This document shows positions 1,897 to 49,000 of a DNA stretch of 64,000 nt, one piece after another. The stretch's first letter is position 1. Every line of letters begins with the position of its first letter. The notes under the pieces were generated by a model. It made no database searches and was not told the origin of the DNA. It saw only the letters and a list, made by a program, of their open reading frames with translations. Position numbers and translations under genes: made by a program. Source of the DNA: Azolla caroliniana (lineage: Eukaryota > Plantae > Polypodiophyta); assembly GCA_043228905.1 (NCBI GenBank), contig JBHGNT010000006.1, forward strand, positions 14,570,001 through 14,634,000. The letters are read 5' to 3'.

Positions 1897-2342
1897 GTCA
1901 GTGTTGTCCACTGGAATAGTAACCAACGGACAAGAGCGTAGGAATAAGAAATAATATAAGATCATAACGCATGTAACGGTTCACGCAGGAAGCGTGAACG
2001 GCTAAATAGACCCTGCGTATATAAAGGGCAGAAAACCTTTGATAGAGGGAGCGTGTAATTTTGGGAATGTAAGAAACGTCTCATAATAGAATTCTATCTT
2101 CTCTGATTCTCTGTGTATAGTTACGGTTAATCCATTGTGTGTCTTGAGGACCTGAGCGTGTAAGAACGTAAGTGTAATCCTTGCTAAGGATTCAGTTGTA
2201 GCCGTCCCCCTTATACGCTGATAGGTTACAGGGAACATTCCCCTATGCATTATGCTTAGACGCCTATTTGTTGTTCCACACCCACTTGGAGGTCTAGGTC
2301 AAAGGACTGACCGCGGACCGTGTTCCTAATCGGCAACACTTT

Positions 2343-2356
2343 TGGCACGCTTGGTG
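2343..2356 (+). promoter_or_regulatory. Primer-binding site of element B (tRNA-Arg-like TGGCACGC..GGTG)
   Basis: Starts with TGG 4 nt after the LTR's terminal CA; resembles the TGGCACGCCCGGTGGGA class of plant Gypsy PBS. Confidence 0.75.
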
Positions 2357-2617
2357 ATCTGTGTCTTCTCACAGACGAGCAACGACGAATGGATGTTTAG
2401 CCCCAGAGAACCAACACGACAAGACCGGCCAATAACAAGGTCCATCACACGCTAGGCAGAAGAACGCGCACGACAAAAGCCTCGCCTCAGCAACCTCAGT
2501 ACTACTTGCCGTGAGTACAAAGGTGATTCTTCGCTCTCCAAATACCTCGATGAGACGCGGAGACTACGCTTACGACAGCCACCCGGTGGTCTTTCCCGAC
2601 CCGCCGTAGCCCCCACC

Positions 2618-5600
2618 ATGGCCTTTGCCTACCCCCGCTTTAACAACGAGACTGACGCCACAACTCATATTCGCATGTTCCTGAATTTCTGGAATGCGAA
2701 CCACATGGCGCAGAGCCTTTCGGAGGCGGTAGCACACTAGTCGAAAATGAGGGAGTTCGGGTTAACATTAGATGGGCGAGCGGCGTTTTGGCATTCACAG
2801 ATGGATTTACCAGCAATTGTTACAACCTTCGATCAGCTGCAGTCCGCTTTCTTGCGATTCTTCCATCGGAGGGTTCCATAACGCAAAATCCTCGGACAGT
2901 TTTATACAATTAAGCAACTGCCGACCAAGACGATAGCGGATTTCAGCTTACGTTTCCAAAATTTACGACGGAAACTGGAACAGAGCCCCGCGGAGGACGA
3001 GGCTCAGGAAACATTTCTGGCAGCTTTACGTCGGCCCATCCGGGCAACACTCAACAACAATAGCGTGAAAGGGGAAACGGCGGATGTGGTAATTGAACGA
3101 GCGTTACAACTTGAGTTGGATGACGAGGAGGAAAGGTTTTCTATGTCCTCCTTACGACAAGCGTTACCTCAGGACGAGAAACGCCAGTTTCTTCAAGCAA
3201 TCCAGTGCACGATTTGGTTGAACTCGGGGCATTCCACAGTGGAGTGCAATATGCGAATCCATTTCCCAATCTGCCACTCGAAGGCTCACACAGTCGACCA
3301 ATGCGGATACAATATGTTAAATAGAGCCACTCCCGCAGTCCGCAGCATGGACACACAACGTCAACCACACCAGATTGAACAGAGGAAGCAAGAAGACTGA
3401 CCCCGGAATAAGGATCGCAACCCACGGGAGGACCAACACCACCGGAATCGCCAGAATCACAACGATTCCAAGGAGGATGAACCAAAGGACGAGGATTATC
3501 GTGGACATCCGAGTTACGCCAAAGGGCATCGGTGCTACGAGAATCACCGGCCGACAAACAAACGGGGCAGCTTCAATGGTTATCGTGGTAAGCCATGGCA
3601 ATATCGAGATCACCGGCGTTACGACGAAAGCTCGGGAAATGAGCGGCACCAGGAACAACGAAGGGACCAACAATAGCCACCGCGTACGTTCCTCGAGGAG
3701 CAAGTAGCACCAGGGGAGCGGCACACACCACCAGGAGCCGAGAAGGGTGAATCAAGCATCCATTGTTTTATTTGTTAGCAACCCGGAAATTATGCCATGC
3801 AATGCCCAGCATGCAAGGGCTTTAAAGGGGCCCGTTGTCAATACGATTACGACGGAAGTGCAGTAGGTCATGACACGCCAGCAAACAAAAACGGTTGATT
3901 GGGGTGCGCAAGACGAGGTATGCCAACAAGCCCAAGCGTGGGTGGAAAAAGCAAACGCGACAAATACGGAACACATGCGGAAGGAGTCCGCGAAAACAAT
4001 GGAGCGAGCAGAGGCCGAAAGACCAGTCCCAAACCCCATTTGGCAGGCGTCAGCGGGCTGTGAGATAACGTTAACCATGGAGAAACTATTGCAACTAGTC
4101 CCACGCTTCCGCCAGACCATGGAAGAACGGGTGACAGGCATACTCGGGGTGAGTATCGCTACAAACCTTACAGACGTTAGCAATGGACCGTCGGTAGTGG
4201 ATCAACACAACCCAACTATTACATTAATATTACACGGACAACAAATTCTTGGATGCGTAATCAACGGCGGCTCAGGCGTCAATGTAATTAGCGCGAAAAC
4301 TTGCGAGCAGTTAGGCATTTTAAAATGGGAGGCTTGCCCATTCTGGCTCCGAATGGGAGATACCCGCTCAGTACGACCATTAGGGTTAATTCGCAAAATA
4401 GTTATTATCGTGGGCGGACACTGAGTCGACATCTCAGTGGTCGTCCTCACCTTGGACGCCCCAGGGGCGTACCCAGTGCTTCTGGGCAAACCATGGCTTC
4501 GTGCAGCAAATATCAAGCAGAGCTGGCAACACAAGTGTATCAGTTTCCGACACAGACGCACTAAGGTTCGCGTACCTACAAAAGGAAGCACGCCACAACC
4601 GAAGGGTATAACACCATTATACGCAGAAGATATAAATGTGTTGGCTGGGGTGGAGGATGCAGAATTAGAGGCATACCTCGATGAGCACCCTCGGATTATT
4701 CCGCTATTTGAAATAGACATCATCGCAACCGCGGTAGAATATACCACGACCACTGTTCTCCATGACGCGCCTTACGAACCAAACCCAGAGTCCATATTGG
4801 AACTCAGGAGAGCACAGGCAGCCTTCAAAAGGGAAATGGAGATTTCACGATGAGTCACCGCTTCCGCCCTCGAAGAAGTAAATATGGGTACGGAATCGAA
4901 GGCTTGGTTCCTCTTCATCGCAAAGGAATTAAGGCTGGACCAGAGAAAAACGATGATCGCACTACTCACAGAATCTAAGGATGTGTTCTCTTGGGCTCAT
5001 GAGGACATGAAGGGGGTTAGATCCCAAGTTCTATCAGCATAAGATCAATTTAGCAACCAACGCAAAACCCGTCCAACAACGCCGCTACCACATGAACCCG
5101 AACTACGCGACCCGTGTGAAAGAAGAAAATAACAAGCTCCTGAAGGCGGGGTTCATACGACCAGTTAAACAAGCGACATGGTTAAGCCCGATAGTGGTCG
5201 TTCCAAAGAAAAACGGCAAAATAAGGGTATGCATAGATTACCGAAAATTAAACACTGTCACCATTACGGACGCATTTCCCTTACCCTTCACCAATAGCGT
5301 ACTGGATGCCGTCGTAGGCCATGAGATGTATAGTTTTTTAGATGGCTTCAACGGCTATAACCAGGTACGCATGCATCCTGAGGACCAAGAAAAGACGGCA
5401 TTTGTCACGGACTGGGGAGTATATGTGGGAGTCGTCATGATGTTCGGGTTAAAGACGGCACCGGCAACATTTCAACGGACAAGTACAGAGATCTTTGGGG
5501 AATACATTCCGGCGTTCATGCAAGTTTTTTTAGACGACTTTGCAGTATATGGGAGAACAATAGACCATTTTTCGCACTTACAACTATGCCTGGAACGTTG

Positions 5601-7690
5601 TCGCACCGCACGCTTAAGCCTGAATCCCGTGAAATGTGCTTTCGGCGTGACCAGTGGGACTCTCCTGGGCCATATAGTCAGCAAGGAGGGAATAACGGTT
5701 GACCTGAATAAAATCTCTGTGATTACGCAAGCCAAAACTTCGACAAACGCTAAATCACTCAGCCGGTTTTTACGACAAATACGGTGGCATAGTCGGATGA
5801 TACGGTATTTGGCGGACTTCGCCACGCCGTTACACGTTGTTGTACATCGGACTCCTTTCCAATGGACTCCAACGGAGGATAAGGCCTACGAGGCACTTAA
5901 GATAATGCTCACACAGGCTCCTGTCGTACAATCACCAGTTTGGGCGAAGCCATTCCACGTGTTCGTCGACGCCTTGGACATAGCAATAGGAAGTGCACTA
6001 ATGCAGCTCACCGAACCAAGCTAGTACCGGTCAGTATACTACGCTAGTCGCAAATTATCAATAGCAGAGCGTAACTACTCCACAATGGAGTGGGAGGTGC
6101 TAGGGATGATCTATATCATCAATAAATTCCGGCACTATTTATTAGGAAGGAAATTCATGTTCCACGTAGATCATTCGGCGTTACTGTATTTGGTGGAGAA
6201 ACAAGCTCTGACAAGGAAATTGGCGTGGTGAATGCTGCTGCTCCAAGAATTCGATTTCGTAATCCAACACCGACCAGGGAGGCAACATGCAGTGGTGGAT
6301 TTTTTGAGCAGACTCGAGAATGGAGAAACAGTACAGAAAGATGACAACGATTTTCCGGACGCTGATATCCTGCGGGTAGCGACACTCGCAGAAAGAACAG
6401 AATCGACCTTTCCGGACCTGTGGCTTATGGAAATGACGTACTTTTTGACTACGGGACTGCCTCCACCACAATTACGCACGGTCGAGAAGAAACGACTAGC
6501 CGTCCGAAGCCGTCACTTCTGCCTTATCGAAGGCGTTCTATATCACAAAGGAAGTGACGGCATTTGGGGACGTGGGGTACGGTAGGATGAGAAGGAAGCA
6601 GTTTTACGGGAGGCACACTGTGGCACGGCAAGCGGCCATTACGTGGGCAACGTTACATCCCGGAAAGTATGGCAGGCGGGCGTATGGTGGCCAACAACGC
6701 AGAAGGACGCATCTGCGTATTGTAGAAAGTGTGATTTGTGTCAACGGATGGGACAGCCCGCGGAGGGCGCAAGGATACTACACCAGCCCGTATTACCGCT
6801 AGACCCCTTCCAAAAGTGGGGATTGGATTTTGTGGGGCCCTTCACACTGGCGGCAGCCCATACGGGCAATAAATACATATTGGTAGCCACAGATTATTGC
6901 ACCAAATGGGTAGAAGCAAAGGCACTACGGGAAAATACAGCGGCCGTCACAGCCAGATTCCTTTACGAGCACATTTGGTGCCGGTTCGGCTGTCCGATTG
7001 AGCTTATCAATGACCAGGGGAGCCACTTTCTCAATGCGATTGTTCGAGAACTAACACATCATTACGTCGTAGTCCATAAGAAGAGTATGCCATATTATCC
7101 GCAAGCGAATGGATTAGCAGAATCCACCAACAAGACGTTGCAGACCATTTTTAAGAAAATCGTCAATGAAAATAGAACGGACTGGGATACCAAACTACAG
7201 AGTGCGTTATGGGCGTACAGAACCAGCTACAAAACAAGCATACAATCAACACCGTTTCGACTAGCGTTTGGGCTGGAGGTTGTGATGCCGGTCGAATTTC
7301 AAGTTCCTAGTTTGCGAATTCAGGTATGGAACCAACTATCAGAAGCCAAGTCGGAGGAGGTACGGCTCCACCAACTCCTCGAACTAGTGGAAAAACGCGT
7401 CCACAACATGGCTTTGTTGGAGCAGGAACAACGATGGCGTAAAGCGTTTGTGGATCGACATCGGAACGCAAGGGAAAAGGAGTTCGCCGTGGGTCGAGCA
7501 GTGCTGGTTTTCCAAACTCGCATGGGCCATATGCCGGGGAAGTTACGATTCCGTTGGACCGGCCCGTATTGGATAATTGGAGCGGAACAAGGCATGTTCC
7601 AACTAGGTACGCTAGGGAAGTAGTCCGGCAAAAGGTGAATGGGTTTCGGCTCAAACCTTACCTGGGCCCTACGCCACCTAACCCATTCAT
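2618..7690 (+). pseudogene. Element B gag-pol, broken by stops and frameshifts
   Basis: Gag with Cys/His knuckles (3065..3400); protease VI(D>N)GGSGVNVI; RT YSFLDGF.GYNQ and FLDDF (5092..6024); integrase WGLDFVGP, DQGSHF, NGLAE (6643..7623). Confidence 0.93.
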
Positions 7691-10600
7691 CGCCGAACAG
7701 GGCAGAGCCAGAGAACCCGCACCGTAAATGAGCGCCCCACTTGTAACATAATGTAAAAATAGGTTCTAGATAACCATTACAAAAAAAGAGAAAAAAAGAA
7801 GGCAGAAGATAGCGACTATTAAAACGACTAAAGGCATGCACAAACTCCTAGTTCAAGAACACGCGGCACCACGATGGCTCACCGCCCAATGAACCTTAAG
7901 CCACAAAAAGAAGGAAACAGAAGATTTTCTGCACAAAACAGAAACTCATCTTCTAGCTATCAGCGCTTCCATCGCTCCTCCCCCTCACCTTCTCCTCCAT
8001 CCTTTCACACAGCTTCAACCCACCGCAACCACCAGTCTCCTTTCCACGAAGCTCCTCTGGCGATGACAATCTTCATCTCTACTGCCTTACGCTGATGGCT
8101 CGTGGAGAAACGCTTGGATGGGTACATCCGGGTCGCAGAAGCACCCCCACACCCACATGCCATGGACATCGCCAGGAAGCTTAACATCAACACGGTCACC
8201 AACTCCTCCATCCGGAAGGAATTGGACCTGTCATCGCTAGGCGAAAGGCATTTCGAAATCCCTCCGGTAGAGGCACTACAACGATATTTCGGGCCATATT
8301 CCTCCTCCGCCAAAGCCTATAGAACCAAGCAGATTCCGGATCCCTTCTTCCGTGAAGTTGCCAAGTTCCTGCTAGAAGTTGGGCATCATTATCGATACCT
8401 TTGAGGGGCGCGCGGTTGATTGGGGGGTCATCACAGGGCCGGCGTTAAGGAAAGGCCTGCATGCGTACCAGGCAGGCAAAAAGCTTAGGCCGATCATACA
8501 ACAGTACCTTACGGTACTATTTCCACCCCGAGGCCTGCCGGCACCGCAGCCCAGCCGGCCCACGCCCCTGCCCCGATCCGCGAAGCGCAGGTTAGCGGAG
8601 TTATCCGCCCCAGAGTGGGGAGAGGAACCCCAACCCGCCCAGCCTGACCCAAGGACAACACCACCTACCGACCAGCCAGACACACGGACAACGCAGGAGG
8701 AACAGCCGGCACGTTCTATGGAAGCAGTCCCAGAGCCAAACACCGAAACACGACAGGATAGCCCCAGACCGAAACAACGTAGATTGGACAGGAAAGATGG
8801 GCGGGGGTTGGTCAAAAATGCCCCCACGACGACAAAAACACCAACCGAAGGCGATGCCTCCGCAACTACGGAACCCAATACCACTTTCGAAATCATCCGG
8901 GAGCCAGGACCGATCATTACAACCTAGTCCCAATGAGGGAAAGCTGTATTGACGGCGAAAAGCGAGGTTTTGGCATATCCGGATATCCCGGATATGGCCC
9001 ATGAGTTCAGCGCCCTCTTACAGTTTGACACTTCTTTTGAGCTCATGGAGTTCCTGGCAACACAACAGGTAAAAGACGCCCAACTAATGGCCAAAGAGCA
9101 TGCGGAACGCCAGATGATTGAGCGCGCCCTAACACAAACAACGGAGAGCGACAATGAGGACTGGTTAGCCAGGGTCGGCAGACAGAGGAACGCCGGGGTA
9201 CTCCGAGTGGGGATGGAGATACCCCCATTAAACACGGCCCTAGTCAAAGTCCATCGGGAACTAGCCAAGGTCAGCATGGGCGCCAAGGAGATGGCCATAA
9301 AAAATAAGAGTGTTTGGAAGAAGGTGAAACTGACCCAAGTCGAACTACAAAAAGCCAACGAACACATTGCGGAGTTGGAAGCTCACGTGACTATGGCGCA
9401 ACACGCAACTCCGCCACCAAACCACGCCATTGATGCTTTAAAGGAAGAAATTGAGGCTCAGACTGTCATCGCCTCAAAAGCGAAAAGGGTCGTGCAACTA
9501 GCGGAATCAGAAATTGACCGCCTTCGAACAGAACTACGCCAATCCTCAGACCGAGAAAAGGAGATACGGCCGGAAGGTAGTAAAAACCCCTGAAGAGAAA
9601 CTCGCGACGGAGGTAGCTCAGCACATCCGGACAAAAGACGACAACGCCCAATTATGGGAAGACGCGAAGAAATCGGAGGCGACAATCGCGGGACTTCAGG
9701 CCTGTGAAAGATTGCTTGCGGAAGCGTTAGAAAGAACAATACACAGAGACAGAGAGAGAGTATGCGGGAGAGACAGAGAGAGAGAGAGAGAGAGCAAAAC
9801 ACACTATTTTTCAAAATTATATGAATACTCTGTGCTCTGTATCTACAACGCGCTCATCAGCACTATTTATACAAGTCCACACGGAACTGTTAGAAGTACG
9901 GTGTACTGCAATGCTCACACGAGCATCTGACACTAACTACGAGACTATAACTGCCTAGTAGTCTAACCTATACTAGGCTTCCAGTTACGGATTGGATCCG
10001 GCATACCGGCTCCTCTTGCTTACCGGTCCTTACTGCTTACCGGCTTGGTTGCTCACCGGCATACCGATTCCTCTCGCTTACCGGCTCAGGCTTATTCAGC
10101 CGATCCGGCTCCGGTTGAGCTTGCCGCTCAACACTCCCCCTCAAACTCAACCTGAGGTAGGGTCGTAGTGTCAACCTCTGTCGCAGCCGGTTCTTCCAAC
10201 CAACTTCTCCTGGCGTCGCTTCGCCTTGCTTGCGCTCCTTGTCCAGTCCGGTTCCGTTTGCCGCGACCCCTTTGGTTCTGCGCGCATGTCTGCTCAATAG
10301 ACCCATCTCAGCTCATTCGCTGCTATGACTCCGGCACTTGCCGATCCGTCGGTTCCACCGTGATGGCATCGACTTCCGCTGCGTCTGTGTCTCCTTGGCC
10401 TTTTGTTGATCTGACTCATCTGGATCTGTCTGTTGATCCGAATCGGTTGTCGTCAACTTGTTACAGCTCTTGTCCGAATCGGTATCCTTCGATTCGATTT
10501 TCGGCTTCAAGCCTCTCACCACATCGGACCACGTCCGGGTCTTGGCCTTCTCTGTGCTTCCCTTGGCTTCTTCAGCCAGTTCACCGACTTGTTCGGATGT

Positions 10601-21499: not shown

Positions 21500-22015
21500 G
21501 AGAATCAGAAACCCCAATCAACAACAACAAAAATGGTGCAAAATCTTTAACTTAGCAAATCAGAAACCCTAATCATAATTTGTATTCAGAAATTTGAAAT
21601 CAGAAACCCTAATCAAAATCTGTAATCAGAAGTTTGAAATCAGAAACGCTAATCAAAATCTGTAACCAGAAACCCTATTCAGAAATTCTAATCAGAAATT
21701 TATAATCAAAACCCTAATCAGAAATTTCAATTAGAAACCCTAATCAGAAATTTCAATCACAAACCCTAATAAGAAATCCTAAACAGAAATTTATAAACAA
21801 AAACCCTATTCAGAAATTCTAATTAGAAATTCTAATCTATAATCAAAATTTGTAACCAGAAACCCTATTCAGAAATTCTAATCAAAAATTTATAATCAAA
21901 AACCCTAATCAGAAATTTCAATCAGAAACCCTAATCAGAAATTTCAATCACAAACCCTAATCAGAAATTTATAAACAAAAACCCTAATCAGAAATTTCAA
22001 TTAGAAACCCCAATC
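21500..22015. repeat. AT-rich array built on AGAAACCCTAATC (telo-box-like), in intron 1 of the accessory gene
   Basis: More than 10 AAACCCTA(A) motifs alternating with CAGAAATTT. Confidence 0.9.
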
Positions 22016-22257
22016 ATCACTAAAGACAGGATTAAACACAAAAAAAGCAATATAAACACACCTGTTGCTACTCCCCGATTTGCGAGACATCCTTACATGG
22101 GACTCCAAGGACTTCGCCCTATTCGATTTTGGGGAAATATGAATCGGCACCAAAGTTCAGACAGTAGTCAAAAAGAAAAAACAAATGTTTGGGGTTTCTA
22201 TAACTGAAACATACCTGGACGATGATCGAGCGGGTTCTGTGTTGTAGCTCTCAATCT

Positions 22258-31352: not shown

Positions 31353-34198
31353 CATATGTAAACGTTTTAGATAATCAATTAAAGACCACTACAACATCAT
31401 TGACTTAATGAAAAAAATTACATATAAACTAAACACATGATTAGATGGGAGAAGAGAGAATAGAAAGAAAAATTATGGAAAGAGTTACCGAAGTTCTTTG
31501 TTGATCGTTGTCTGGATAAAGGCCAACCGCACAACGATCGATCAGCATCAATCAAAAGACAAATGAAAAACAAAGAAACATTAGTACAAAAATCTGATAC
31601 CAAATATTATAGATCTTGATACTAACGTAAGCTTAAGATAAGGATAATGAAAAGATAGATAGAAAGGAGAAAGAGAAAGAAGGGTGCCGATCCACCCGAC
31701 CACCCCCGAGCGAAGGGATCGAGACGGACTCGAGCCTCGATCAGCGTCCCATACCACCGCCGTGGCGTCGAGTCGTACCTGGTGCGGGCGCGCTCGCTAC
31801 AAGAGTTGACCCACCACACGAGCAGAGTCTCGATGTAGTCAAAAGATGATCAAATGAGGGTAGCTAGGCCTCTTATTTATAGCGATACCCAAGGCCCCCA
31901 GGCAAGTTCACACTTGACCTAATGGGTTGTCTCAATCCCGAGGATTAAAAGTAATCCTCCCCTTCTTTACACTCTCATTTAACCCTCACACTTATCCACG
32001 TGTATAGAATACTACGGTAAATTCTTACCACGGGATATTATATGGTCATGCCCGTAACACTGGGGATGCACTGGTAGATGCACCGGCGTGGTTCTCCTCT
32101 ACAAGGAGCATCGATTGTAAGTCGAAAAATGAGGGTGTATTCTCCCTTGTACAAACCGCAGGCCGGAAAGCTCCGAACTTGGACGCCAGGCCTCCAAGAC
32201 AGACCTACACCATCTCATCTTCCTCTACGGTGACGTTAATAGAGGCAAGCGAGTCACAGATCCCTTTGATCCGATCTGTGTAATCTGCCACCGACATGTT
32301 CTTCTGTCGAACATTGCTCAACTCCTGTTTGAGTTGCAGCTTCCGGGCAGTGGTGCTTGCGGCGAAGACCTTTTTCAAGTTTCCCCAAGCATCCTTCGGT
32401 GTCTTGGCGTCACAGATATGGCTGAGCAGCTGGTCACCAACACTGGACGCGAAGCAGTACATCACCCTGCTTGCCGCCTGTTCCCACACTGGGAAGTCCT
32501 TGTGTGTCGTCTCCGGTGCTGAGTCGTTCACTCCGTCGACATAACTCCAGTAGCCATGCCCAAGCAGGTACTGGTGCATCTTGTATGACCAAGATGCGTA
32601 GTTGGTTCTGTCGAGCTTCTCCACCGGGAGCGACGTAGCCATACCTCTGTCCATTTCTCCTTTTGTGTCTGTTTTCCGATCTGTTAGGGTTTCCTTCACA
32701 AGCGTAGATGTCTGCAGCAGAGGTTCTCAACGCACGCGCTCTGATACCATGTGAAAGATTGCTTGCGGAAGCGTTAGAAAGAACAATACATAGAGAGAGA
32801 GAGAGAGAGTACGTGGGAGAGGCAAAGAGAGAGAGAGAGAGCAAAATGCACTATTTTTCAAAATTATATGAATACTCTGTGCTCTGTATCTACAACGCGC
32901 TCAACATCGTTATTTATACAAGTCCACACGGGACTGTTAGAAGTACGGTGTACTTCAATGCTCACACAAGCATCTGACACTAATTACGAGACTATAACTG
33001 CATAGTAGTCTAACCTATACTAGGCTTCTGGTTACGGATTGGATCCGGCATACCGGCTCCTCTTCTTACCGGACCTTACTACTTACCAGCTCGGTTGCTC
33101 ACCGGCATACCGATTCCTCTCGCTTACCGGCTCAGGCTTATTCAGCCGATCCGGCTGCGGTTGAGCTTGCCGCTCAACGGGGCCTTATTAGAGAAAAAGA
33201 AGGTATGGTTCGACGAGCAGTTGGTGGTCGAACAAGAAAGAAGGCTTCAGCTCGAAATCTGCCTAAACAATGAAATGGGGAAATTAGAAGAACAACATGC
33301 AAAGAAATCCCAACTGTGGGCGGGCCTGAAGGCCACGTACGAAGTAGCAACGGCGGTTAAACAACAAGAAATTGCAGACCTCTAGAAGTCGATGGAGGAC
33401 GCACGCAACCATTGCCAGGCCATCATAGATAACGTGTGTATCCTTCTCCAAACAAATCAAGAGAGGTTCATAGCACAATTGAAAATGGTGTTGGACAAAG
33501 GATGGATGGTGTGGGCAACCCAAGCAGCAGAATTGCACGCGTATCGTGCGGACTGGGAGAACCGGCAAAAAGACGGCCGAGGTTTCTATAAGCTAAAGGA
33601 GGAGAGCATTGCAGTCGTACGAGAGGACCTAGTGCAAGACTATCGTGCACTAGCGGACCAACACTCCGAAGAACTCGCGCAGCTTTTAGATGATTTTGGT
33701 GAAAGCCAGGAGGAGCTATTTCACCAGATCACACAAGCCGGCAACACACGCACAAACTAGGAATCCAGCGCGATGCCAATTCCGGGCACGACCGAAGAAG
33801 AGGAACCTCAAGCTCGATCACTAGAAATGACAACGATGGAGAATAGCGCGGACCGACGAGCGGAGTCCCCCACAGTACCAAACAACGAAACCACTGCACA
33901 AGAGGAGGTTCATCCGCATGAGCCCAAGCTATCATCGGACCACACGGAGAACGATTCCGCCCCACTCCCTAGAATGTACGAAAACGGCCGACACCACGGA
34001 GGATGTAACAATGGAGGCAGAGCCGCAGCCGACTGCAAGCACGACAACGGAGGAGCCCAACCCACTAGCTCAAGAAGAGCCCACCGTACCCGGACCGCCC
34101 ACACACGGCGACTATGACTCCGGGAGAAACCAGCCCAACCAAACAGGGGAGCCACACCACGATGCACCTACGGGCCCTACGTCACCTCGGGACGCGGA

Positions 34199-37100
34199 TG
34201 TCGAATACATGTGTATAATGGACGTATTCATACTATCCCGTTTTGGACATTTATGTAATTAGCATAAAGGGCAGTTGCCCTAAGTCGGTCACTATATATA
34301 GTGACCTTGTAACCTTTTTGTAAGGTTGGATGTTGTATTATTGCTTTATGGAATAAGTAGTCTTTTGTGTCTCTCTCTCTCTCTCTCTCTCTGTGCAACG
34401 ATCTACAAACTGTCATACGCAGGTACTTAACAGCAGTCGAATGCTTCTTGATCTTCCGCACAGACGACATTGTCTCCAACATCTGGTATCAGAGCCTGCA
34501 CAGTAGTCGGTCCTTCAATCCGCTGTCGGCCGTCGTCTCAGCATTCGGTTTCCTGCGTCACTCGAAGAAGAGAGAAGAAGAAGAAAAACCAGGTTTGCAT
34601 CTCATTGCGTTAGATCATCTTTGCTTGGAGTAAGCCAGCAGGTTGTACTCTGTCCTCCGTGATCGTAACCGCTCGAGGTGAAATCCCCTTGTGCAACATT
34701 GACACGATCGTGCTCCATTCGGTTAAACGGCATCCGAAGAGGTCATCAATCGCCGCTCGTTGTAACCATTCGGTGCAGATCGGTCTCAAGACAACAACCC
34801 CAATTCGTGCTTCATCCGGCTGATCGACATTCGAGAGGATCAGTTGGATCCATCTCTCTCGTCGCTGCAGCCACCCGAAGCAGAATCGGTCCAGATAATC
34901 GGTTTTAATAATCGGTATTCGGCATATATATCCGAAGCGAACCGGACTCACTCCGACTCGGTAACATTCGGGAAGACCAGTCGGTTCTGTCCCTCAAGCT
35001 ACCGAAGTCAATTCGAGCAAGTTCCGAAGCCGAACCTACTCGGGTTCAAATCCGACTAGAACGATATCGGGTGAGCCAACCGGCTGCACTCCAACAAGGT
35101 TCGTAGTCGACTCCGAACCGAGCTTCGTCAACCGAAACCGAATTCGATGGCATCAACATCCGGCTCGTCAGAAATGAGTCTACGAAAGTTCGATGGATCG
35201 AACTTCAACTTCTGGAAGGAGCAAATGCAGGACTATCTCATAGTCAAGGGGCAAATCGATCCCATCGAAAATGAAGAACCTCCAGAAGGATACAAACCAA
35301 TTGAGTGGCAGAAGCTGGACAGAATCGTCCGCGCCACGATTCGGATGCACCTATCGGAATCGGTATACTTTACGGTGCAATCGTGTACGACAGCATTCGA
35401 ACTGTGGAAAACACTGTCGGACACTTACGAAAAGAAGGTCGCCGCAACGAAGATGTTTCTGATCCGGCGCCTCTACAACTTGCGGATGAAAGAATCCGAT
35501 TCGGTTCAAGCACACCTCAATGAGTACGAAAGCATAAGCTCCCAAATCTCGTCACAGGGGACGGCAATCGAGGATGAACTCAGAGCAATGATACTCATGA
35601 GCAGCCTTCCCTCATCATGGGAAACTTTCGTCACAACCGTGTGCAACGCGTCAACCACGGTTGTTAAGTACTCCGAAGTCACGAGCGCAATCCTGACCGA
35701 AGCAGCTCGGAGAAAGTCTTTCGCCAAAGACTCAACAGACGACGCTTATGTAGTACAAGGTTCGACAGACCGATCAAACATACGAGGAAGAGATTCCTCA
35801 CGGCCGCCGAACAATCAGCGAAGACGGAGCCAGTCACGGGATAACCGAATCTGCAACTATTGCAAGAAACCCGGACACATCAAAGCCGACTGCCGCGCAC
35901 TCAAGAACAAGAACAACAAGAAGAGTGGCCGGCATGAGGAGATCAATTACGTCAGCTTCTCAGCTGATGTACTACCGGACGACCCGAATATACTATCAAT
36001 CGAAAATCCAGTCGGATCAGAAGTTCTACTCACGACTGAAGAATCGAGCACATGGCTCTTAGATTCGGGCGCGTCATTTCACGTGACTCCTCATCGATCC
36101 CAATTTCGGCAATATACGATCCGTCACTCCGACTCAGTTCGAGTCGGCAACTCACAACACTGTGACATCATCGGAATCGGCACAGTAGAGCTCAACCTTG
36201 CAGGTGGCTCTACACTTGTACTTCACAATGTCCGACATGTACCCGAGCTCTCAAGGCCATTGATCTCAGTCGGACAACTAGATGAAGACGGCATTCGTGC
36301 CGGCTTTTCTTCGGGAGGGTGGACACTCCACAGGGGGAACCTCCTGCTTGCTAGAGGACCCAAGATACACTCACTGTATCCGTTACATGTTACGCTTAGA
36401 GAGGGTAACCTGTTTTTGGTGGATATTCCTGTGTCATCACTATGGCACAGAAGATTAGGACACCTCAGCAAGGCCGGCATCACGCATCTATCTAGAGCCG
36501 GATACATCCCCAAACTCTCCTTTTCCGACCATCAATTCTGCGAGCATTGCCAGTATGGCAAACAAGCAGCCGCATCACACCCGACATCAGCACCAAGAGA
36601 AACGAGACCTCTCGATTTAGTCCATTCGGACGTCTGTGGCCCAATGCCGCATCAGTCTCTAGGCGGTGCCTCTTACTTCGTCACTTTTATTGACGATTCG
36701 ACTCGAAAGGTGTGGGCTTATCCGATTCGCACCAAAGATCGGGTCTTCTCGATCTTCTCAGATTGGCTCGCTATGGTAGAAAATCAAACCGACCGAAAAC
36801 TGAAATGCTTTCGGACAGACAATGGGGGAGAGTTCAAATCCGAAGAATTCGTCAAATTCTGCCGACAACGCGGCATCCGACGTGAATTTACGGCACCACA
36901 CAGCCCGGAGCAAAACGGGATTGCAGAACGAATGAATCGGACAATCCAAGAAAGGATAGTTTCCATGCTCCAACAGTCCGGACTGTCGGATGGCTTCTGG
37001 GCAGAGGCTCTACTCACGGCAGTACACATAATCAATATGTCGCCAAGTAGACCTCTAGGACTTCAAATTCCTCAGGAACTATGGATCGGCAGTACGCCGA

Positions 37101-39636
37101 ATTACGACAAGCTGAGGATCTTCGGATGCGAGGCGTACGCCCTTATTCCGAAAGATGATCGCCGAAAACTTGCACCTCGGTCCAGGAAATGCATTTTCCT
37201 TGGATATGGATCCGACGGCGAAATGGGATACCGACTCTGGGACCCCGAACGCAGACAAATCGTTCGAAGTTCGGACGTTGTGTTCAACGAGTCGGCTATG
37301 AATCCATCAGTCGAAAAACCGATCGAAGTCCGAAGGGTAACATTTTCCGATGTGCCGACCCTTCAAGAAGGCCCCGCTCTCAACACACGGTCAGCTTCAC
37401 GGGTAGCTGAACCTTACACTACCGACTCGGACAACTCCGACTCGGCACAGCAGAACAATCCGCTTTCGGACCATCCGACCACGATACCCGATGCGACCAG
37501 TCCACTCATACCTCGACGATCCGAGAGACTGTCGCAACCTCCGGAGAGGTATTCTCCTGGAATTTTCTTCACCGACGCCGGCGAACCGACGTCTTACGAA
37601 GAAGCATCGACATCTGTCGATTCAGCCACCTGGCATCTGGCGATGGAGTCGGAAATGCACTCCATTCGGGCAAACAAGACTTGGGATCTGGTCGAATTAC
37701 CTAAGAATCGACGTGCTCTTCCTTGCAAGTGGGTTTATCGACTAAAAGAGACGTCTGATTCGACCACCCCAAAGTACAAGGCCAGATTAGTTGCGAAGGG
37801 CTTCCGACAAGAATATGGCGTCGACTTCGACGAGATTTTTTCACCAGTGGTGAAAATGACAACCCTTCGTTTCCTACTCGGCGTAGTGGCAGCCGACAAC
37901 TTGGAGCTGATTCAGCTAGATGTCAAAACAACCTTCCTCCATGGTGATCTTGAAGAGGAAATTTATATGGAGCAGCCAAAAGGCTTCGTAGCACCTGGCC
38001 AAGAACATCTAGTCTGCCGACTCAGGAAGAGTCTATACGGCCTCAAACAGGCACCGCGACAATGGTACAAGAAGTTCGACGACTTCATCCAATCGATCGG
38101 CTTCTCAAAAAGCGATGAGGACCATTGTCTTTTTACCAACACAACTCAAGATGGATCACCCATCTTCCTCATCATTTACGTGGACGACATGCTAATTTCT
38201 AGACGCCACGCGGGCGACCTTGCCGATCTCATTCGGCAACTGCGGTTGAAGTTTGCCATGAAGGACCTCGGTCCGGCACGACACATCCTTGGCATGAAGA
38301 TTAGTCGGCATCGCGATAAACGACATCTTTTTTTGTCTCAGACTGACTATATCGGACGTGTCTTGGAACGCTTCAACATGCAATCAGCCAAATCTGCTTC
38401 AACCCCGCTCCCCATGAATCTTCGGCTCTCTCAGCGAGACTGCCCGACATCCGGTTCGGAGGGGGAAGATATGAAGTCGGTACCGTATGCACCGGCAGTC
38501 GGCTCCCTTATGTACCTGATGGTCGCGACACGGCCTGATATTTCTCACGCCGTAGGAGTCGTTAGCAGATTTATGCACAATCCTGGCCGATCGCATTGGA
38601 ACGCAGTCAAGCATGTGTTCAGATATCTGGCTGGCACAAAAGACCACGGCATTCTTTTCGGTCCGAACCGAACCTCAGGCGTAGTCGGTTACACCGACTC
38701 GGACTTCGCCGGCTGTATAGACAGTCGGAAATCAACAACCGGATACTGCTTCAAATTCGGCAATGGAGCAATCTCGTGGAAGTCGAAACTTCAGGAGTGC
38801 ACAGCGACCTCAACGACCGAAGCAGAATATGTAGCTGCGTCCGACGCAGCAAAAGAAGCTTTGTGGCTCGGTCGGCTGGCGCACACGTTTCGACAAGTCG
38901 ACCATGACTCGGCTCCAGTTGTCTACAGCGACAGTCAAGGTGCTGTTGCCTTGTCGAAAAATCCGGTTCACCACAACGCCTCCAAACATATCGACGTTCG
39001 ATATCACTTCGTTCGGGACTGCGTCATTTCAGGGAAAATCGGTCTAGAGAAAATATCCACAACCGACAATGTCGCAGATGGAATGACCAAGTGTCTTTCG
39101 GCAGACCGCTTTCGGTCTCTTCGGCATCAGATGGGCGTAACGACAAACCAGTCCGGTTAGAGCCGGACACAGAGCAGGATGGTTCCCGACAACCGACATC
39201 AGTTTCTTAATGATCGGCTTCAACTATTCCGACCCGACCAGTTCGGTCTTCTGCCTTCGGACCCTGCCGACTCGAACAAAGCTGATATGTCCAAGAACCT
39301 AAGTCTATACCTGTAATCTTAGATAACCCATGTATACGCCCATTACGGGGGAGTGTCGAATACATGTGTATAATGGACGTATTCATACTATCCCGTTTTG
39401 GACATTTATGTAATTAGCATAAAGGGCAGTTGCCCTAAGTCGGTCACTATATATAGTGACCTTGTAACCTTTTTGTAAGGTTGGATGTTGTATTATTGCT
39501 TTATGGAATAAGTAGTCTTTTGTGTCTCTCTCTCTCTCTCTCTCTCTGTGCAACGATCTACAAACTGTCATACGCAGGTACTTAACAGCAGTCGAATGCT
39601 TCTTGATCTTCCGCACAGACGACATTGTCTCCAACA
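34199..39636 (+). mobile_element. Intact Ty1/Copia element D (Tnt1/Tork-like)
   Basis: 283-bp LTRs 34199-34481 and 39354-39636, identical by eye; perfect TSD GCGGA; PBS TGGTATCAGAGC at 34484; PPT GGGGGAG at 39347. Confidence 0.98.
35147..39160 (+). CDS. gag-pol: Copia gag-pol polyprotein, 1337 aa, uninterrupted
   Basis: CNYCKKPGHIKADC; WLLDSGASFH; HSDVCGP/RTDNGGEF/NGIAERMN; YVDDML; YTDSDFAG/TEAEY/ADGMTK. Confidence 0.97.
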   Translation: MASTSGSSEMSLRKFDGSNFNFWKEQMQDYLIVKGQIDPIENEEPPEGYKPIEWQKLDRIVRATIRMHLSESVYFTVQSCTTAFELWKTLSDTYEKKVAATKMFLIRRLYNLRMKESDSVQAHLNEYESISSQISSQGTAIEDELRAMILMSSLPSSWETFVTTVCNASTTVVKYSEVTSAILTEAARRKSFAKDSTDDAYVVQGSTDRSNIRGRDSSRPPNNQRRRSQSRDNRICNYCKKPGHIKADCRALKNKNNKKSGRHEEINYVSFSADVLPDDPNILSIENPVGSEVLLTTEESSTWLLDSGASFHVTPHRSQFRQYTIRHSDSVRVGNSQHCDIIGIGTVELNLAGGSTLVLHNVRHVPELSRPLISVGQLDEDGIRAGFSSGGWTLHRGNLLLARGPKIHSLYPLHVTLREGNLFLVDIPVSSLWHRRLGHLSKAGITHLSRAGYIPKLSFSDHQFCEHCQYGKQAAASHPTSAPRETRPLDLVHSDVCGPMPHQSLGGASYFVTFIDDSTRKVWAYPIRTKDRVFSIFSDWLAMVENQTDRKLKCFRTDNGGEFKSEEFVKFCRQRGIRREFTAPHSPEQNGIAERMNRTIQERIVSMLQQSGLSDGFWAEALLTAVHIINMSPSRPLGLQIPQELWIGSTPNYDKLRIFGCEAYALIPKDDRRKLAPRSRKCIFLGYGSDGEMGYRLWDPERRQIVRSSDVVFNESAMNPSVEKPIEVRRVTFSDVPTLQEGPALNTRSASRVAEPYTTDSDNSDSAQQNNPLSDHPTTIPDATSPLIPRRSERLSQPPERYSPGIFFTDAGEPTSYEEASTSVDSATWHLAMESEMHSIRANKTWDLVELPKNRRALPCKWVYRLKETSDSTTPKYKARLVAKGFRQEYGVDFDEIFSPVVKMTTLRFLLGVVAADNLELIQLDVKTTFLHGDLEEEIYMEQPKGFVAPGQEHLVCRLRKSLYGLKQAPRQWYKKFDDFIQSIGFSKSDEDHCLFTNTTQDGSPIFLIIYVDDMLISRRHAGDLADLIRQLRLKFAMKDLGPARHILGMKISRHRDKRHLFLSQTDYIGRVLERFNMQSAKSASTPLPMNLRLSQRDCPTSGSEGEDMKSVPYAPAVGSLMYLMVATRPDISHAVGVVSRFMHNPGRSHWNAVKHVFRYLAGTKDHGILFGPNRTSGVVGYTDSDFAGCIDSRKSTTGYCFKFGNGAISWKSKLQECTATSTTEAEYVAASDAAKEALWLGRLAHTFRQVDHDSAPVVYSDSQGAVALSKNPVHHNASKHIDVRYHFVRDCVISGKIGLEKISTTDNVADGMTKCLSADRFRSLRHQMGVTTNQSG

Positions 39637-40178
39637 GCGGACACCGCAGCAGAGGCAAACATCCGGGCCATTTTGGAAGAGGATTAACGGGATGGGTCCG
39701 ACGTGCCATGGCACTATCCCATAAGCGTGCCAGGTGTTGTCCGCCGGAATAGTAACCGGCGGACAAGAGCGTAGGAATAAGAAATAATATAAGATCATAA
39801 TGCATGTAACAGTTCACGTAGGAAGCGTGAACGGCTAAAAAGACCCTGCGTATATAAAGGGTAGAAAACCTGTAATAGAGGGAGCGTGTAATTTTGGGAA
39901 TGTAAGAAACGTCTCATAATAGAATTCTATCTTCTCTGATTCTCTATGTATAGTTACGGTTAATCCACTGTGTGTGTCTTGAGGACCTGAGCGTGTAAGA
40001 ACGGAAGTGTAACCCTTGCTAAGGATTCAGTTGTAGTCGTCCCCCTTATACGCCGATAGGTTACAAGGAACATTCCCCTACGCATTACGCTTAGACGCCT
40101 ATTCGTTGTTCCACACCAACTTGGAGGTCTAGGTCGAAGGACTGACCGCGAACCATGTTCCTAATCGGCAACACTCAG

Positions 40179-42780
40179 TCTGCCCATCTAACTGAGGATG
40201 ATCAAAAGAACTAAGACTCAAGGTTGTTTGTAGTTTCTGCATAACTTCTAACCAAAATGTACTTGTAAACTTGGAGTCTCGATCACTTACAATCTCCATT
40301 GGTAGACCATATAATCTATAAAGATTTCTAATAAACTTAATAGCCAATTGCTTTGCGATAATTGTGGATTTTGTTGGAATGAATCTTGCCATCTTGGTAG
40401 GCCGATCAACAACCACCCAAATGACATTATTTCCCTCAGTGGAACGAGGTAATCCAACTATGAAATCCATGGATATACTTTGCCACTTTTCAGATGGAAT
40501 ATCGAGGGTTGCAATAAGCCAACTTTTTTCTATCACTTGGCCTTAATGACCTGACATTGTGGACAACGTATGGCATAGGACTCTACCTTAGGTTTCATCT
40601 TTGGCTAGAAAAACCCAGCTTTAATCAAAGCTAATGTTCTTTGCACACCTAGATGTCCAGCAAAAGGGGCATCATGACATTCATACAAAATTTTATTGTT
40701 GATGCCCTTTATGTGTGGTATGCAAACCTTACTATTGCGGTACAATAACCCATTCGCAACATAGTAAAGGGTCTTCGGGGTAGATGTGTTTCCATAATCG
40801 ACGTCAATACCTATTTCAGCTCTCTTCCAGAACTTGGGAAATGTTCTGTCATCAAGATTTTTTTTTTACCCCGGATCAAATCAAATAAGTCGTCGTTAAA
40901 TTCTACAAAACTTAGGGCATTAATTTCTGGAATACGACTCAGGGCATCTGCAATGGAATTCAAAGCTCCTTTTCGATATCTAATTTCGAAATCGAAGTCT
41001 TGCATCAACTCCGCCTATCTTGCCTTTCGACCCTCAAAATTCTTTTGAAAGAGGAAGTATCGCAAGGATTTGTGGAACCTATTAAAAACTGTAAATTTAC
41101 TACCATACAAATAATGTCACCATTCTTTTGTTGAACCGAGTAATTTCTTTGGGCCGGATCCAATTTGTTGCTTTCAAAAGCAATTGGTCTCCCAAATTGA
41201 AATAATGCAGTCCCAATAGCATAATCACTTGCATCCGTCTCAACTTCAAATGTTTGATTTGGGTCAGTTATAGCTAAAGTAGGTGCATTCACAATTAATG
41301 AATTCAACTTATTGAAGGTTTCTTCAAGAGAGGCATTCCACTCAATAGGTTTCGTAGACTTTCTTGTAATACCCTTCAATAGGTCTGTAAATGGTGTAGT
41401 GTAGGATGAATAGTTTTGAAGAGATCTTCTTAGGAATCCAACAAATCCTAAGAAAGATCGTAGATCCTTAACATTTGAAGGTCGTGGCTAATTTAATATT
41501 GCTTCTATCTTAGATTTATCGATAGAAACACCCGACCTAGATATATGGCGTCGAACATACGCAATTTCCTTTTGAAAAAAATCACATTTAGATAGTTTGG
41601 CAAATAGCTTGTATTCATGAAGCTTGTCCAAAACTATTCAGCAATGACACGCATGATCCTCAAATGTGTTACTATATACCATAATTTCATCAAGGAATAC
41701 GACCACGAAATCGCCTAGCTGATCTCTGAATATATCATTCATGAATTGCTAGAATGTGGTTGGAGCATCAATCAACCCAAATGGTAGAACCCGAAACTCA
41801 TAATGACCATAATGAGTTCGGAAAGTTGTTTTGGAAACATCTTTATCCGAAAGTTACCCTGATCTGATGATAGCCAAAGCGCAAGTCTATCTTGGTGAAA
41901 TATCGTGCACTTTGGAGTCTATCTATCAAGTCATCAGAACGAGGCAAAGGGTAGGAATTGTGAATGGTGAGTTTATTCAAACCCTAGTAATTTACACACA
42001 TTCGCTAAGTTCCATCCTTCTTCTTGCCCAAGATGACGAGAGCTCCCCATGGCGATTTGTTGTACCAGATGTGTCCCATCCTCAAGTACTCCTTGCTTTG
42101 TTGGGCAATTTCATCATCTTCAGTTCAACTCAACCGATAAGGGGGTATGCTCATAGATTTAGCACCTAGGACCAAGTTTATCTTATGTTCTATAGACCGA
42201 GGAGGTAATCCTTGAGGTAACTTATCTAGGAATAAGTCCTTAAAATGCAACAAGATGTCATGTAGAGCATCTTTCTCAAAATCATCCAATGAACTCTTAT
42301 CTACAAATTGATACAAAGGATCATTGGGCTGTAATATACACGCATAAAATTGTGCATCAACATTTCGATCATAAGTATAAAGATGATTAACAGACATTAA
42401 ATTGTTTATCGCAATCCCATGAATAAAAACTTGTTGGTTGTTATTTCCTTCAAAAGAAATAGTATGATTCGACCAATCGATATCAAGACTATGTCTATTA
42501 TAAAACCATATGTAACCAAGAACTACATCTACCGTTCGTAAACGCCTTACATGAAGTGTAGTTATTTATTACTACGGGTACATCATGTGCAATTAATGAA
42601 TGCCTTTGGACATGGCCTCCTGTAGTAAGGACTTTGTAGTCGTGGTCACTTTTGGTTGTTTTTATTTGTAACATCTGCACCATATTAGAGACAAGAAAAT
42701 TATGAGTGCCACCACAGTCAAATAGTATAGTTACACTTTGATTGTGGATAGTCCCATAAGTTTTTGTAATACATTAGAAC
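40179..42780 (-). pseudogene. Element A pol (protease-RT-RNase H-integrase N-part), degenerate
   Basis: [43 protein letters not shown] motifs in ORF fragments 41005..41379, 40811..41008 and 40129..40536. Confidence 0.9.
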
Positions 42781-46023: not shown

Positions 46024-49000
46024 TGAAAGGAATACCGTTCCCTAAGCTATGCTCAGCCACAATCGAGACGTCGGATCAAGCACAGAAAACAAGGATGTGG
46101 TGAGATGTATTTATGCACGAAACAGTAAAGAAGAGAGTGCACTGGAAAACCCAAATCTGGGAAAAACCATGACAGCCCTCAGACTGCAAAATATCACTAT
46201 ATCAAGATTACAATAATGGGGCACGGAGGCAACGACCTCTTGCTCCCTCGCTTTGCCACTAGGCGGTTACAATAGAGGCAACAACCTCTTCTTCTCTCTC
46301 TCTCTTCTCTGTACACGGTTACGCTCTGAATTATAGCCACAACGATAATAATACAACCAACTCTACATCATACAATTAAGTTTGCCCTAGGTCATATTTA
46401 TACTAATATGACTTTCGGGTTATTTACAAATATAGCCTCAGTGATACCTATGTTGGATGTGCTTCATCCTGGAATGGTACGCTGCGTTCTTAACAGGGTG
46501 GATGGCACTTTGACTGTCGCAATAGAGCCGGTATTCATCTTACCGGATACCGAGCTCACCGATGAAGTCCTTCATCCATAATATTTTCTTGCCGGCTTCC
46601 ACAGCCACCATGTACTCCGCCTCCGTGGTTGACAACGCAACCATCCTCTACAGCCTCGATTGCCACGAAACAGCTCCCCCTGCATATGTCATTACATACC
46701 CGGATGTAGACTGGCTGGTATCCACATTAGCGGACATGTCCGAATCGGTCAAACCGTCAAATTGAGGTTTACCGGAGCCGAATCAGAGACACATATTCGA
46801 AGTGCCCTTCAAGTACCAAAGTATCCATTTGACCGCGTTCCAGTGCTCCTTGCCGGGATTGCTCATAAACCGGCTCACCACTCCGACTGCGTATCCAATA
46901 TCCGGTCGAGTACACACCATTGCGTACATTAAGCTCCCAACGGCAGAAACATATGGAACCTTCATCATATCTGCCTTCTCTGCTTTCGTCTTCGGGCTTT
47001 GCTTACCGGATAGTCTGCAGTTTGTCGGGAGTGTCGATCTGACCGGTTTTGCTTCTAACATATTGGACCGCTGAAGCACCTTTGTCACGTATTTCTCATG
47101 TGACAACCACAATTTCTTCTTTGACCGGTTCCGGATGATGTGCATCCCCAGTATCTGTCTTGCCAGGCCCAAGTCTTTCATTGCGAAGGTTCGATTGAGA
47201 GCCTTCTTCAGCATCTGTATTTTGGCTTGGTCTCGTCCGACGATCAACATGTCGTCCATGTACAAAACGAGTATCAGGAAGTCGTCTCCTTCGAACTTCT
47301 TTACAAACACGTGGTGATCGGTTTGCATTTTGTGATACCCTTGGTCAGTCATGAAGGAGTCAAACTTCCGGTACCATTGTCGGGGAGCCTGCTTCAGTCT
47401 GTATAGGTTCTTCTTCAACCGGCAAACCAGGTGCTCCTTCCCTTTCTCAACAAATCCTTCCGGTTGTTGCATGTAGATCTCCTCTTCGAGGTCACCGTGA
47501 AGGAATATTGTCTTCACGTCCAGCTGCTCTACCTCGAGTTCCATGCTTGCCGCTATACTCAGCACCGTCCGGATGGAAGTCATCTTTACTACTGGGGCAA
47601 ATATCTTGTCGAAGTCCACACCCTTCTTCTGCTGGAACCCCTTCACCACGGTCCTGGCTTTGTATCTCGGGGGTTTGCCGGTGTCTCCCGGTTTCAACTT
47701 GTACACCCACTTATTTCGGAGTGCCCGCTTTTCTTTCGGCAACTCCACCAATTCGTACGTATGGTTCTCATGCAGGGAATCCATTTGCGGTTGTGGGGGT
47801 CATCCTTCGCTTCTTCGAAGCTTTCCGGCTCTCCCTCATCTGTTAGTAGCACATGCTCTGCATCCGGAAATCTCTGGGGGGGCCTTCTCTCTTTGAGAGG
47901 ATATCTCCGTCTTTGGCCTTCGGCAACCGGCTCCACTATTTGTTCTTCATCCAAATCTAATTCAGGGTCTTGGCCGGTTCCGATTTTAGCTTCCTCTACT
48001 TCTTCTTCTGCCGGTTCGGTATCCTCACCGTAACCGGCTGGTTCCTCGAGTGTCAACCAGCTCTTAGCCGGGTGGGTCCGAATCTCATCGGAGTTCATTA
48101 TCTTCTTCTCCGACTCCTAGTCGGCAAGAGTCTTGTCCTCCATGAAGATAATATCTCGGCTCCGGAAAACCTTCTTGTCAACCGGATCCCACACTCGGTA
48201 GCCGAACTCATCATCGTCGTAACCGAGGAATATGCATGGCCAGGTCTTCGGATCTAACTTTCCTCTCCGGTCCTTACCAACATGCATGTACGCGAGACAC
48301 CCGAACACCTTCAGATGCTGGTAGGACCCTTCCTTACCGATCCACACCTTTTGCGGTGTGTCTCCATCCAAGGGCACTGAGGGTGATCTGTTTATCACAT
48401 ACGTCGCTGTCGATAGCGCCTCAGCCCAGAATGTATTGGGTAATTTTCCATGCGCCAGCACTCTCCAGACCCTCTCCATTATGGTTTGGCTCATCCTCTC
48501 GGCCAGCCCGTTTAGTTCCGGCGTCTTCGGCATGGTAAATTCGAGCCGGATTCCCTTCGAGCGATAGTACTCCTCGAACTGCCCCAGGTATTCACCTCCG
48601 TTTCTGCTCGAACCGCCTTCAACTTCCGGCCGGTTTCTCTTTCTACTCTCATGTGGAGCTCTTTGAAGACGGATAGCACCTGATCCTTCGTCTTCCACGG
48701 TGTGGCCCACATCTTCCAGTTGTGGTCATCTATGAATGTCACGAAGTACTGCGATCCGGCATGTGACTTCGTGTCCACTTGACACACATTAGTTTGCACC
48801 AACTCCATTGGTGCATTACTTCTCATCGGTGGCCTTGAGCGGAAAGAGGTTCGGTTTTGCTTACCGGCTAGGCAGTCGGTGCACCTCTCAAGGTGCACGT
48901 TCTTCACTGGAATGAGGTTGTCATCGGCAAGCCTCTTCATCCCCTTGACACTCATGTGACATAGTCTCTTGTGCCACAGCTCACTGGAAATGTCGGAAGC

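Follow-up and report, generated by a model that had tools for sequence, protein, structure and literature searches.

The window, namely the whole stretch of 64 kb of Azolla caroliniana DNA that was analysed, is a nest of LTR retrotransposons. One of these, element B, belongs to the Ty3/gypsy group: an LTR pair with TG...CA ends and a target-site duplication (TSD) is present, a primer-binding site (PBS) lies just downstream from the 5' LTR, with gag accompanied by reverse transcriptase (RT; RVT_1), RNase H (RH) and integrase (IN), in the order RT-RH-IN. The two LTRs (1902-2338 and 39735-40173, both with TG...CA ends) show 25 differences over 437 aligned nt (K2P 0.06). The components of the element, and the insertions that interrupt it, are as follows:

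1897..1901, plus strand: left target-site duplication, 4/5 matching 40174-40178
1902..2338, plus strand: 5' LTR of element B, TG...CA, its right border backed by low-agreement loose ends behind 2338
2343..2356, plus strand: PBS, after a 4-nt spacer, which we take to be of the tRNA-Arg type
2396..7650, plus strand: gag-pol remnant (gag, RT, RNase H, integrase), interrupted by stops and frameshifts
8063..9702, plus strand: first part of an extra 3' ORF, broken, without a Pfam family and with 4 homologues of up to 872 aa
9703..33178, minus strand: nested Copia element C and further nested insertions, foreign to B
33179..34198, plus strand: middle part of the extra 3' ORF, broken
34199..39636, plus strand: nested Copia element D, foreign to B, with LTRs 100% identical and a 5-bp TSD
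39637..39687, plus strand: last part of the extra ORF (...AILEED stop), with acidic codons that make up a purine-rich stretch at about 39675-39687
39735..40173, plus strand: 3' LTR, with a strong hairpin at its start (39735-39768) and a TATA-like motif at 39851
40174..40178, plus strand: right target-site duplication

The extra ORF is thus split by two Copia insertions (9703-33178 and 34199-39636), and B sequence picks up again 98 nt upstream of its own 3' LTR. In relatives this forward ORF reaches about 870 aa (P0121) and has a tail of low complexity, with a conserved acidic motif at the C-terminus; among longer proteins the search gave only 4 homologues, and no Pfam family was found for it. 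The acidic terminus is common to the window, to a related metagenome locus (L001) and to the proteins P0121 and P0124, the shared terminal motif having been judged by eye, and BLASTP gave no significant match between the ORF tail of L001 and P0121. Copia D, which carries a 1361-aa open frame and lies 98 bp upstream of the 3' LTR of B, is a very recent insertion with identical LTRs, and has left the junction described below intact. The nest also contains tandem arrays (14187-14872, 19031-20047, 53-532, 12300-13046, 17745-18177 and 21584-22028) with units of about 20, 96, 83, 39 and 13 nt, the arrays at 14187-14872 and 19031-20047 sharing a palindromic unit.

Placement of element B within Ty3/gypsy

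No Chromo hit was obtained in the scanned frames of B (element E has one), the nearest homologues are likewise without it, and an assignment to the chromoviruses was discarded for want of a chromodomain after the integrase. The Tat clade (TatI-III, Ogre, Retand) was also discarded, B being without the additional archaeal RNase H; indeed, its RT-RH-IN region aligns without insertion to P0001 and P0002, which lack PF13456. In a quick, midpoint-rooted IQ-TREE search on 69 rows chosen from the 79 loci of a metagenome scan and 120 listed proteins, the Tat rows form a clade separate from B, which itself falls outside the seed-plant clade and the clades with Asp-type PBSs, in a tree with open deep nodes and without reference sequences. 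The closest RT homologues are metagenome proteins (74-77%), while named near matches, which include Riccia and Adiantum, reach 42-54% over most of the query, from which a host other than a seed plant is likely.

Compared with the groups described in the available text of PMC6317226, B resembles the plant non-chromovirus Ty3/gypsy (OTA) group in having no chromodomain, a 5-bp TSD and an extra 3' ORF, and resembles Ogre, TatIII and Retand, for which tRNA-Arg is listed there, in its type of PBS, whereas the extra archaeal RNase H of Tat is missing. The PBS of Athila (Asp/Asn/Ala) is of another type; Phygy (PBS Trp, 4-bp TSD) and Selgy (PBS Ala, 4-bp TSD) were rejected because B has a different PBS, a 5-bp TSD and the extra ORF. 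A further difference from the groups described is that the extra ORF of B is forward. In that same text three primer types are distinguished, all of them for the start of reverse transcription, and the polypurine tract (PPT) is named as the 3' element. Element B is a variant of Ty3/gypsy, whose route of priming we infer from what follows.

The 3' junction and its tRNA-like cassette

The PBS starts at 2343, 4 nt past the end of the 5' LTR (2338), and, as the original prediction had it, the reverse complement of its bases 2343-2352, AAGCGTGCCA, stands at 39723-39732, followed by GG (39733-39734) and by the LTR from 39735. This 10-mer occurs at just these two places in the 64 kb, both strands considered, and simple arithmetic gives a chance of roughly 6e-6 for a 10-nt match at a fixed site with about 6 offsets; both LTR borders (39735 and 2338) are backed by loose ends in public sequencing runs. 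The absence of a PPT next to the 3' LTR is equally borne out: directly before their 3' LTRs, elements A, C, D and E carry at least 4 G in a row, and B has no such run, even if purine count alone does not set B apart (9/15, as in D). A canonical PPT-primed LTR element was rejected, since no polypurine tract abuts the 3' LTR of B or that of L001, and the loose ends listed for the family contigs show no consensus of this kind. Copia F (46024-50732, minus strand) is likewise devoid of a purine tract at what appears to be its 3' junction, where the LTR is without a TG start; this junction looks damaged, probably by a deletion. As to the hairpin announced before the site of B, the fold does exist, while its stability is no better than that of shuffled sequences (z between -1.5 and +0.9 in four folds of the junction).

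For the feature that takes the place of the PPT, tRNA-half cassette is a more fitting description than inverted PBS. It is composed as follows:

39692..39701, plus strand: cassette part 1, resembling tRNA positions 49-58 (5' strand of the T-stem and T-loop), with 2 differences
39702..39715, plus strand: cassette part 2, a 14-nt insert with a 4-bp stem-loop, sitting between the equivalents of A58 and G59
39716..39732, plus strand: cassette part 3, a tRNA-sense copy of positions 59-76 with CCA at its end, one base short at about 66; the predicted tRNA docking site on minus-strand DNA
39733..39734, plus strand: 2-nt spacer GG between CCA and the LTR

The reference for positions 59-76 is the reverse complement of the full 18-nt PBS of L029, a Tat-clade element whose first 8 PBS nucleotides are the same as those of B, and thus comes from another plant element and not from a host tRNA gene; its position numbering and its Arg label are our assumptions. 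The motif expected for positions 49-58 was derived from T-stem pairing and the universal T-loop. Measured in this way, the site of L001 lies 2 edits and that of the window 4 edits from the tRNA 18-mer, both being without the same single base near position 66; in both, the upstream part (10-11 nt) is 1-2 edits from the expected positions 49-58 and the insert is 13-14 nt long, with one compensatory change (G-C to A-T) in its stem between window and L001. The two-part pattern has 2 matches in 1.36 Mb (window and 79 loci, both strands), exactly the sites of the window and L001, a figure that gauges rarity and not discovery, the pattern having been designed after both sites had been seen. The match is to the 18-mer from the L029 PBS and, partly, to the PBS of B itself; the cassette, however, covers tRNA positions outside the reach of the PBS (59-62 and 49-58), and its geometry (CCA, short spacer, TG) is that of a PBS.

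A tRNA gene or a full tRNA-like structure was rejected: ARAGORN reported no tRNA in the window or in the 79 loci, Rfam gave no match to a tRNA-type family (every hit with E of at least 0.96) and no acceptor-stem partner was found near the cassette in cis. No relevant printed plant tRNA-Arg ends were found in the open literature, scans of viral contigs gave no match, and five hits of the junction motif in prokaryote contigs were taken as chance. The same probably applies to a 14-nt match to the cassette of L001 at 24991-25007 (minus strand), within a Copia interior.

Conservation in relatives and in public sequencing runs

The relative L001 (RT 76% identical to that of B at the amino acid level, in the same clade with support 99) is a permuted, probably collapsed contig that leads from the extra ORF through the junction and one LTR into gag; it is the sole clade member reaching the junction, the close relatives L002, L003, L006 and L027 stopping in or just after pol or leaving the element. 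After its ORF stop it carries a 41-nt cassette that agrees with the window in 30 of 41 columns, ends 0-2 nt before the TG of the LTR and reads CTA, not CCA, next to an LTR whose alignment with that of B yields no more than short words (the TATA box, for instance). The PBS of L001 (L001:925, located from its distance to the start of gag) has TGGCGACCACG as its first bases, and the duplex between PBS and cassette is worth -7.4 kcal/mol, against -20.6 in the window copy; a tRNA 18-mer on the minus-strand site gives -27 and -31 kcal/mol, RNA parameters serving as a proxy. Since L001 keeps the cassette together with a different, non-pairing PBS, the cassette is conserved independently of the PBS, and what it tracks would be a tRNA. 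Two readings are not supported on this account: one takes the site for a PBS copied in inverted orientation, the exact complementarity being moreover limited to 8 nt family-wide, and the other requires a single tRNA species for both strands.

This comparison also bears on the idea that the site pairs with the PBS in the RNA, for circularisation, for control of tRNA loading or for self-priming of the minus strand. In the window copy the PBS is indeed the best partner of the site within the element (-18.6 kcal/mol), and long-range 5'-3' contacts are described for Ty3 in the available text of PMC5371799; we nevertheless consider such a role very improbable, given that the cassette of L001 has been kept with a non-complementary PBS, that only 8 nt are exact in the family and that the plus-strand primer would be left unexplained. 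Circularisation in particular, once suggested for B, is contradicted as a conserved function by the non-pairing PBS of L001 and by the extension of the cassette to tRNA positions outside the PBS.

Another possibility is that a tRNA piece was captured once, in an aberrant round of reverse transcription, and kept for some other reason (for example, as a protein-binding site), priming being imprecise or unspecified. RT stops on tRNA at A58/G59, which is where the similarity borders, and the insert looks like a tRNA end fused to its own complement. Against an event of this kind, which we hold to be quite improbable, stands the conservation of a non-coding 41-mer while the adjoining LTRs have become unalignable, together with a distance to the LTR held at 0-2 nt and with precise LTR starts.

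Ordinary PPTs are found outside the clade, in L013, L017, L063 and L073 and, in weaker form, in L079; L063 and L079 lie within the 27-row starred clade of the tree, L013, L017 and L073 outside it. Among the nine repeat pairs listed, four (L017, L063, L073 and L079) have a usable 3' junction with a purine tract, and five are unclear or belong to another element. As distant relatives have PPTs, the cassette appears to be derived, and replacement of a PPT by the cassette is the likely direction. The PBSs of the PPT-bearing L063 (L063:4805) and L079 (L079:5055) begin much like that of L001 (L001:925), hinting that the L001-type PBS is older in the clade than that of B.

At the family level, contigs of four public DNA runs (X1, X3, X4 and X10, from four studies, with two species labels and a leaf metagenome) were aligned on 39637-40230 (2259, 1899, 1964 and 410 contigs, respectively). 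Just before the LTR the summed depth is of the order of half the depth at its start, which is what a cassette forming the normal 3' junction should give; the ratio is a rough guide, as depth is not copy number. Loose ends at 39735 agree at 0.39-0.44 among the rows listed (18 and 10 contigs), as random flanks would, with no purine-tract consensus among them, and the LTR starts are precise. Among the variants listed, position 39716 is G in 82-88% of depth, 39722 is C in 82-91% and 39724 is G in 79-99% across the four runs, with no variant at 39725-39734. On the PBS side the letters of the window are common, T at 2351 being kept in 78-93% of depth in X1, X3 and X4 and C accounting for 7, 9 and 22%, respectively; the run contigs are unphased, and PBS and cassette letters are compared across pooled copies. 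A further run with another species label, X11, had no contigs on the PBS region, which does not prove absence there.

The typical family copy has 8 exact complementary nucleotides and a G.U pair between site and PBS, and family-wide the exact complementarity shrinks to these 8 nt (39724 mostly G, 2351 mostly T); because of a private transition at 39724 in the window copy, the 10/10 match is partly copy-specific. The majority letters at 39716, 39722 and 39724 (79-99% of depth) are those predicted for the tRNA from the 18-nt PBS of L029, so that the family is closer to the tRNA than the decayed window copy is. At 39692 most of the depth reads A, and at 39722 most of it reads C, a combination that makes an A.C mismatch in the plus-strand RNA stem but, at this one position, would be tolerable as G.T against the tRNA. 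A one-off rearrangement, an outcome that would have spoken against the original prediction, was rejected, the site being present across the four runs and in L001: the cassette is a real, family-wide feature, conserved across a deep split.

In one run, a subfamily has both a T-run and an extended purine run right before the cassette (30 contigs, agreement 0.57), and this favours a displaced PPT, in which a purine stretch upstream of the cassette would prime, the 43-nt extension would be trimmed and the cassette would act as an end-processing or packaging signal. In the window and L001, the best purine 13-mers (11/13 and 12/13) stop 47 and 48 nt short of the LTR, and T-rich boxes precede PPTs elsewhere, according to the available text of 10.1101/2022.12.06.519325. 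The stretch is, however, the coding end of the extra ORF, whose acidic peptide is kept in the window, L001, P0121 and P0124; in L001 it contains pyrimidine-ending codons, and it is displaced by 7 nt with respect to the cassette. To our knowledge, trimming of 40 nt by an integrase has no precedent, which also counts against a displaced PPT, and we regard this explanation as improbable.

Candidate routes of plus-strand priming

In the RNA the cassette is tRNA-sense, and hence unable to bind a tRNA; on the minus-strand cDNA its complement could do so. What is observed is that a PPT is absent and that a cassette is present which is conserved and does not depend on the PBS, and priming of the plus strand by a tRNA, already put forward in the original prediction, is the best reading of a site that is conserved, tRNA-like and PBS-independent. 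With moderate confidence, we propose that in this PPT-less, non-chromovirus Gypsy clade the complement of the cassette binds a second host tRNA, probably tRNA-Arg, which would prime the plus strand 2 nt before U3. It is likewise somewhat probable, judging from sequence comparison, that the whole non-seed-plant Gypsy clade uses two tRNA primers and no PPT, with a split docking site that would open the T arm around m1A58 and with different tRNAs usable for each strand.

In this scheme, clearance of the RNA by RNase H would expose on the minus-strand DNA about 17 nt complementary to tRNA positions 59-76 and about 10 nt complementary to positions 49-58 (a split site of about 27 nt in total), the insert hairpin being looped out at A58, a residue which, as m1A, does not form Watson-Crick pairs. 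Docking would open the T arm and place the 3'-OH of CCA before GG-TG; once the second strand transfer has taken place, the minus strand would meet the tRNA, RNase H would remove the latter in the same manner as the minus-strand primer, and the linear cDNA would owe its two ends to one and the same chemistry. Priming by a second tRNA would account for the letter-level identity to tRNA, the independence from the PBS, the fixed spacing and the common A/C at 39692/39722.

Several points count against a second tRNA. The CTA of L001 puts a mismatch next to the primer end, RNA on DNA is a substrate of RNase H, and both elements have a purine-rich 13-mer whose end lies 47-48 nt before the LTR; moreover, the cassette can fold in cis (-13 kcal/mol for the RNA of L001, in which an extra A lengthens the cis stem). 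HIV-1 RT reportedly prefers to extend the DNA in DNA-tRNA hybrids. Non-PPT RNA primers of HIV-1 are, according to the available text of PMC2665208, weak and suppressed by NC.

The fold in cis is at the basis of a further explanation, already contained in the original prediction as a tRNA-like primer supplied by the RNA: the cassette of the element's own RNA would refold as a T-arm mimic, resist RNase H, be cut after CCA and be extended as a tRNA is. A single hairpin with a free 3' tail is obtained in L001 and in the fold of 39686-39732 of the window, the stem of the insert shows one compensatory pair, and the usual principle, a genomic fragment that resists RNase H, as presented in the available text of PMC5371799, would be kept. 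On the other hand, folding is no better than in shuffles, no acceptor-stem partner lies nearby in cis, most copies have an A.C mismatch at the base of the RNA stem, and the kept letter identity to tRNA, beyond shape, is left unexplained; this explanation is weaker than that of a second tRNA and, on balance, unlikely.

Among known systems, canonical Ty3 replication, as given in the available text of PMC5371799, is shared by B as regards LTRs with TG...CA ends, a tRNA PBS for the minus strand, the order gag-PR-RT-RH-IN and a primer end 2 nt before U3. The second contact of Ty3 with its tRNA, part of a bipartite PBS, lies within U3; in the RNA it is antisense to the tRNA, and it serves to initiate the minus strand, whereas the 3' site of B is tRNA-sense, lies outside the LTR and stands in the place of the PPT. 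The self-priming elements Tf1/sushi, Tcn1 and TAR resemble B in swapping a standard primer by means of a PBS-complementary sequence; in these, the 5' end of the transcript replaces the minus-strand tRNA and the PPT is kept, while in B it is the PPT that is replaced (PMC6317226 and 10.1101/2022.12.06.519325, in their available text). The Helenus TRIMs of PMC10886601 also contain tRNA-derived sequence inside an LTR retrotransposon, but, in the text available, it is located in the LTR and is proposed to be a Pol III promoter, PBS and PPT are present, and a priming role is excluded by the author. A tRNA-like site replacing the PPT does not appear in the available text of PMC6317226, PMC5371799, PMC10886601, 10.1101/2022.12.06.519325, PMC2665208 or 10.64898/2026.03.20.713144, and no description of one was found in the open literature; subscription journals, Repbase reports, bioRxiv supplements and Neumann's per-element table may hold an unremarked record.

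If correct, priming by a second tRNA would be a mechanism of plus-strand priming undescribed for LTR retrotransposons or retroviruses. Given that plus-strand priming from a PPT is held to be near-universal in LTR retroelements, a successful, high-copy clade without it would indicate that this step is replaceable, and would offer a natural system in which to study how an RNA primer lying on DNA comes to be chosen or spared by RT and RNase H; from a practical standpoint, annotation filters based on the PPT may miss such elements or assign them wrong borders. Should one of the other explanations hold, a tRNA-half cassette conserved at the origin of the plus strand would still be a cis-element for which no description was found.

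The hairpin at the LTR start (39735-39768, and 1902-1935 in the 5' LTR) is worth -22.3 kcal/mol in the 3' LTR and -10.7 kcal/mol in the 5' LTR. In related subfamilies the match of many contigs breaks off at about 39765, so that cassette and hairpin together seem to form the best-conserved block; the LTR of L001 starts with just a weak 5-bp stem.
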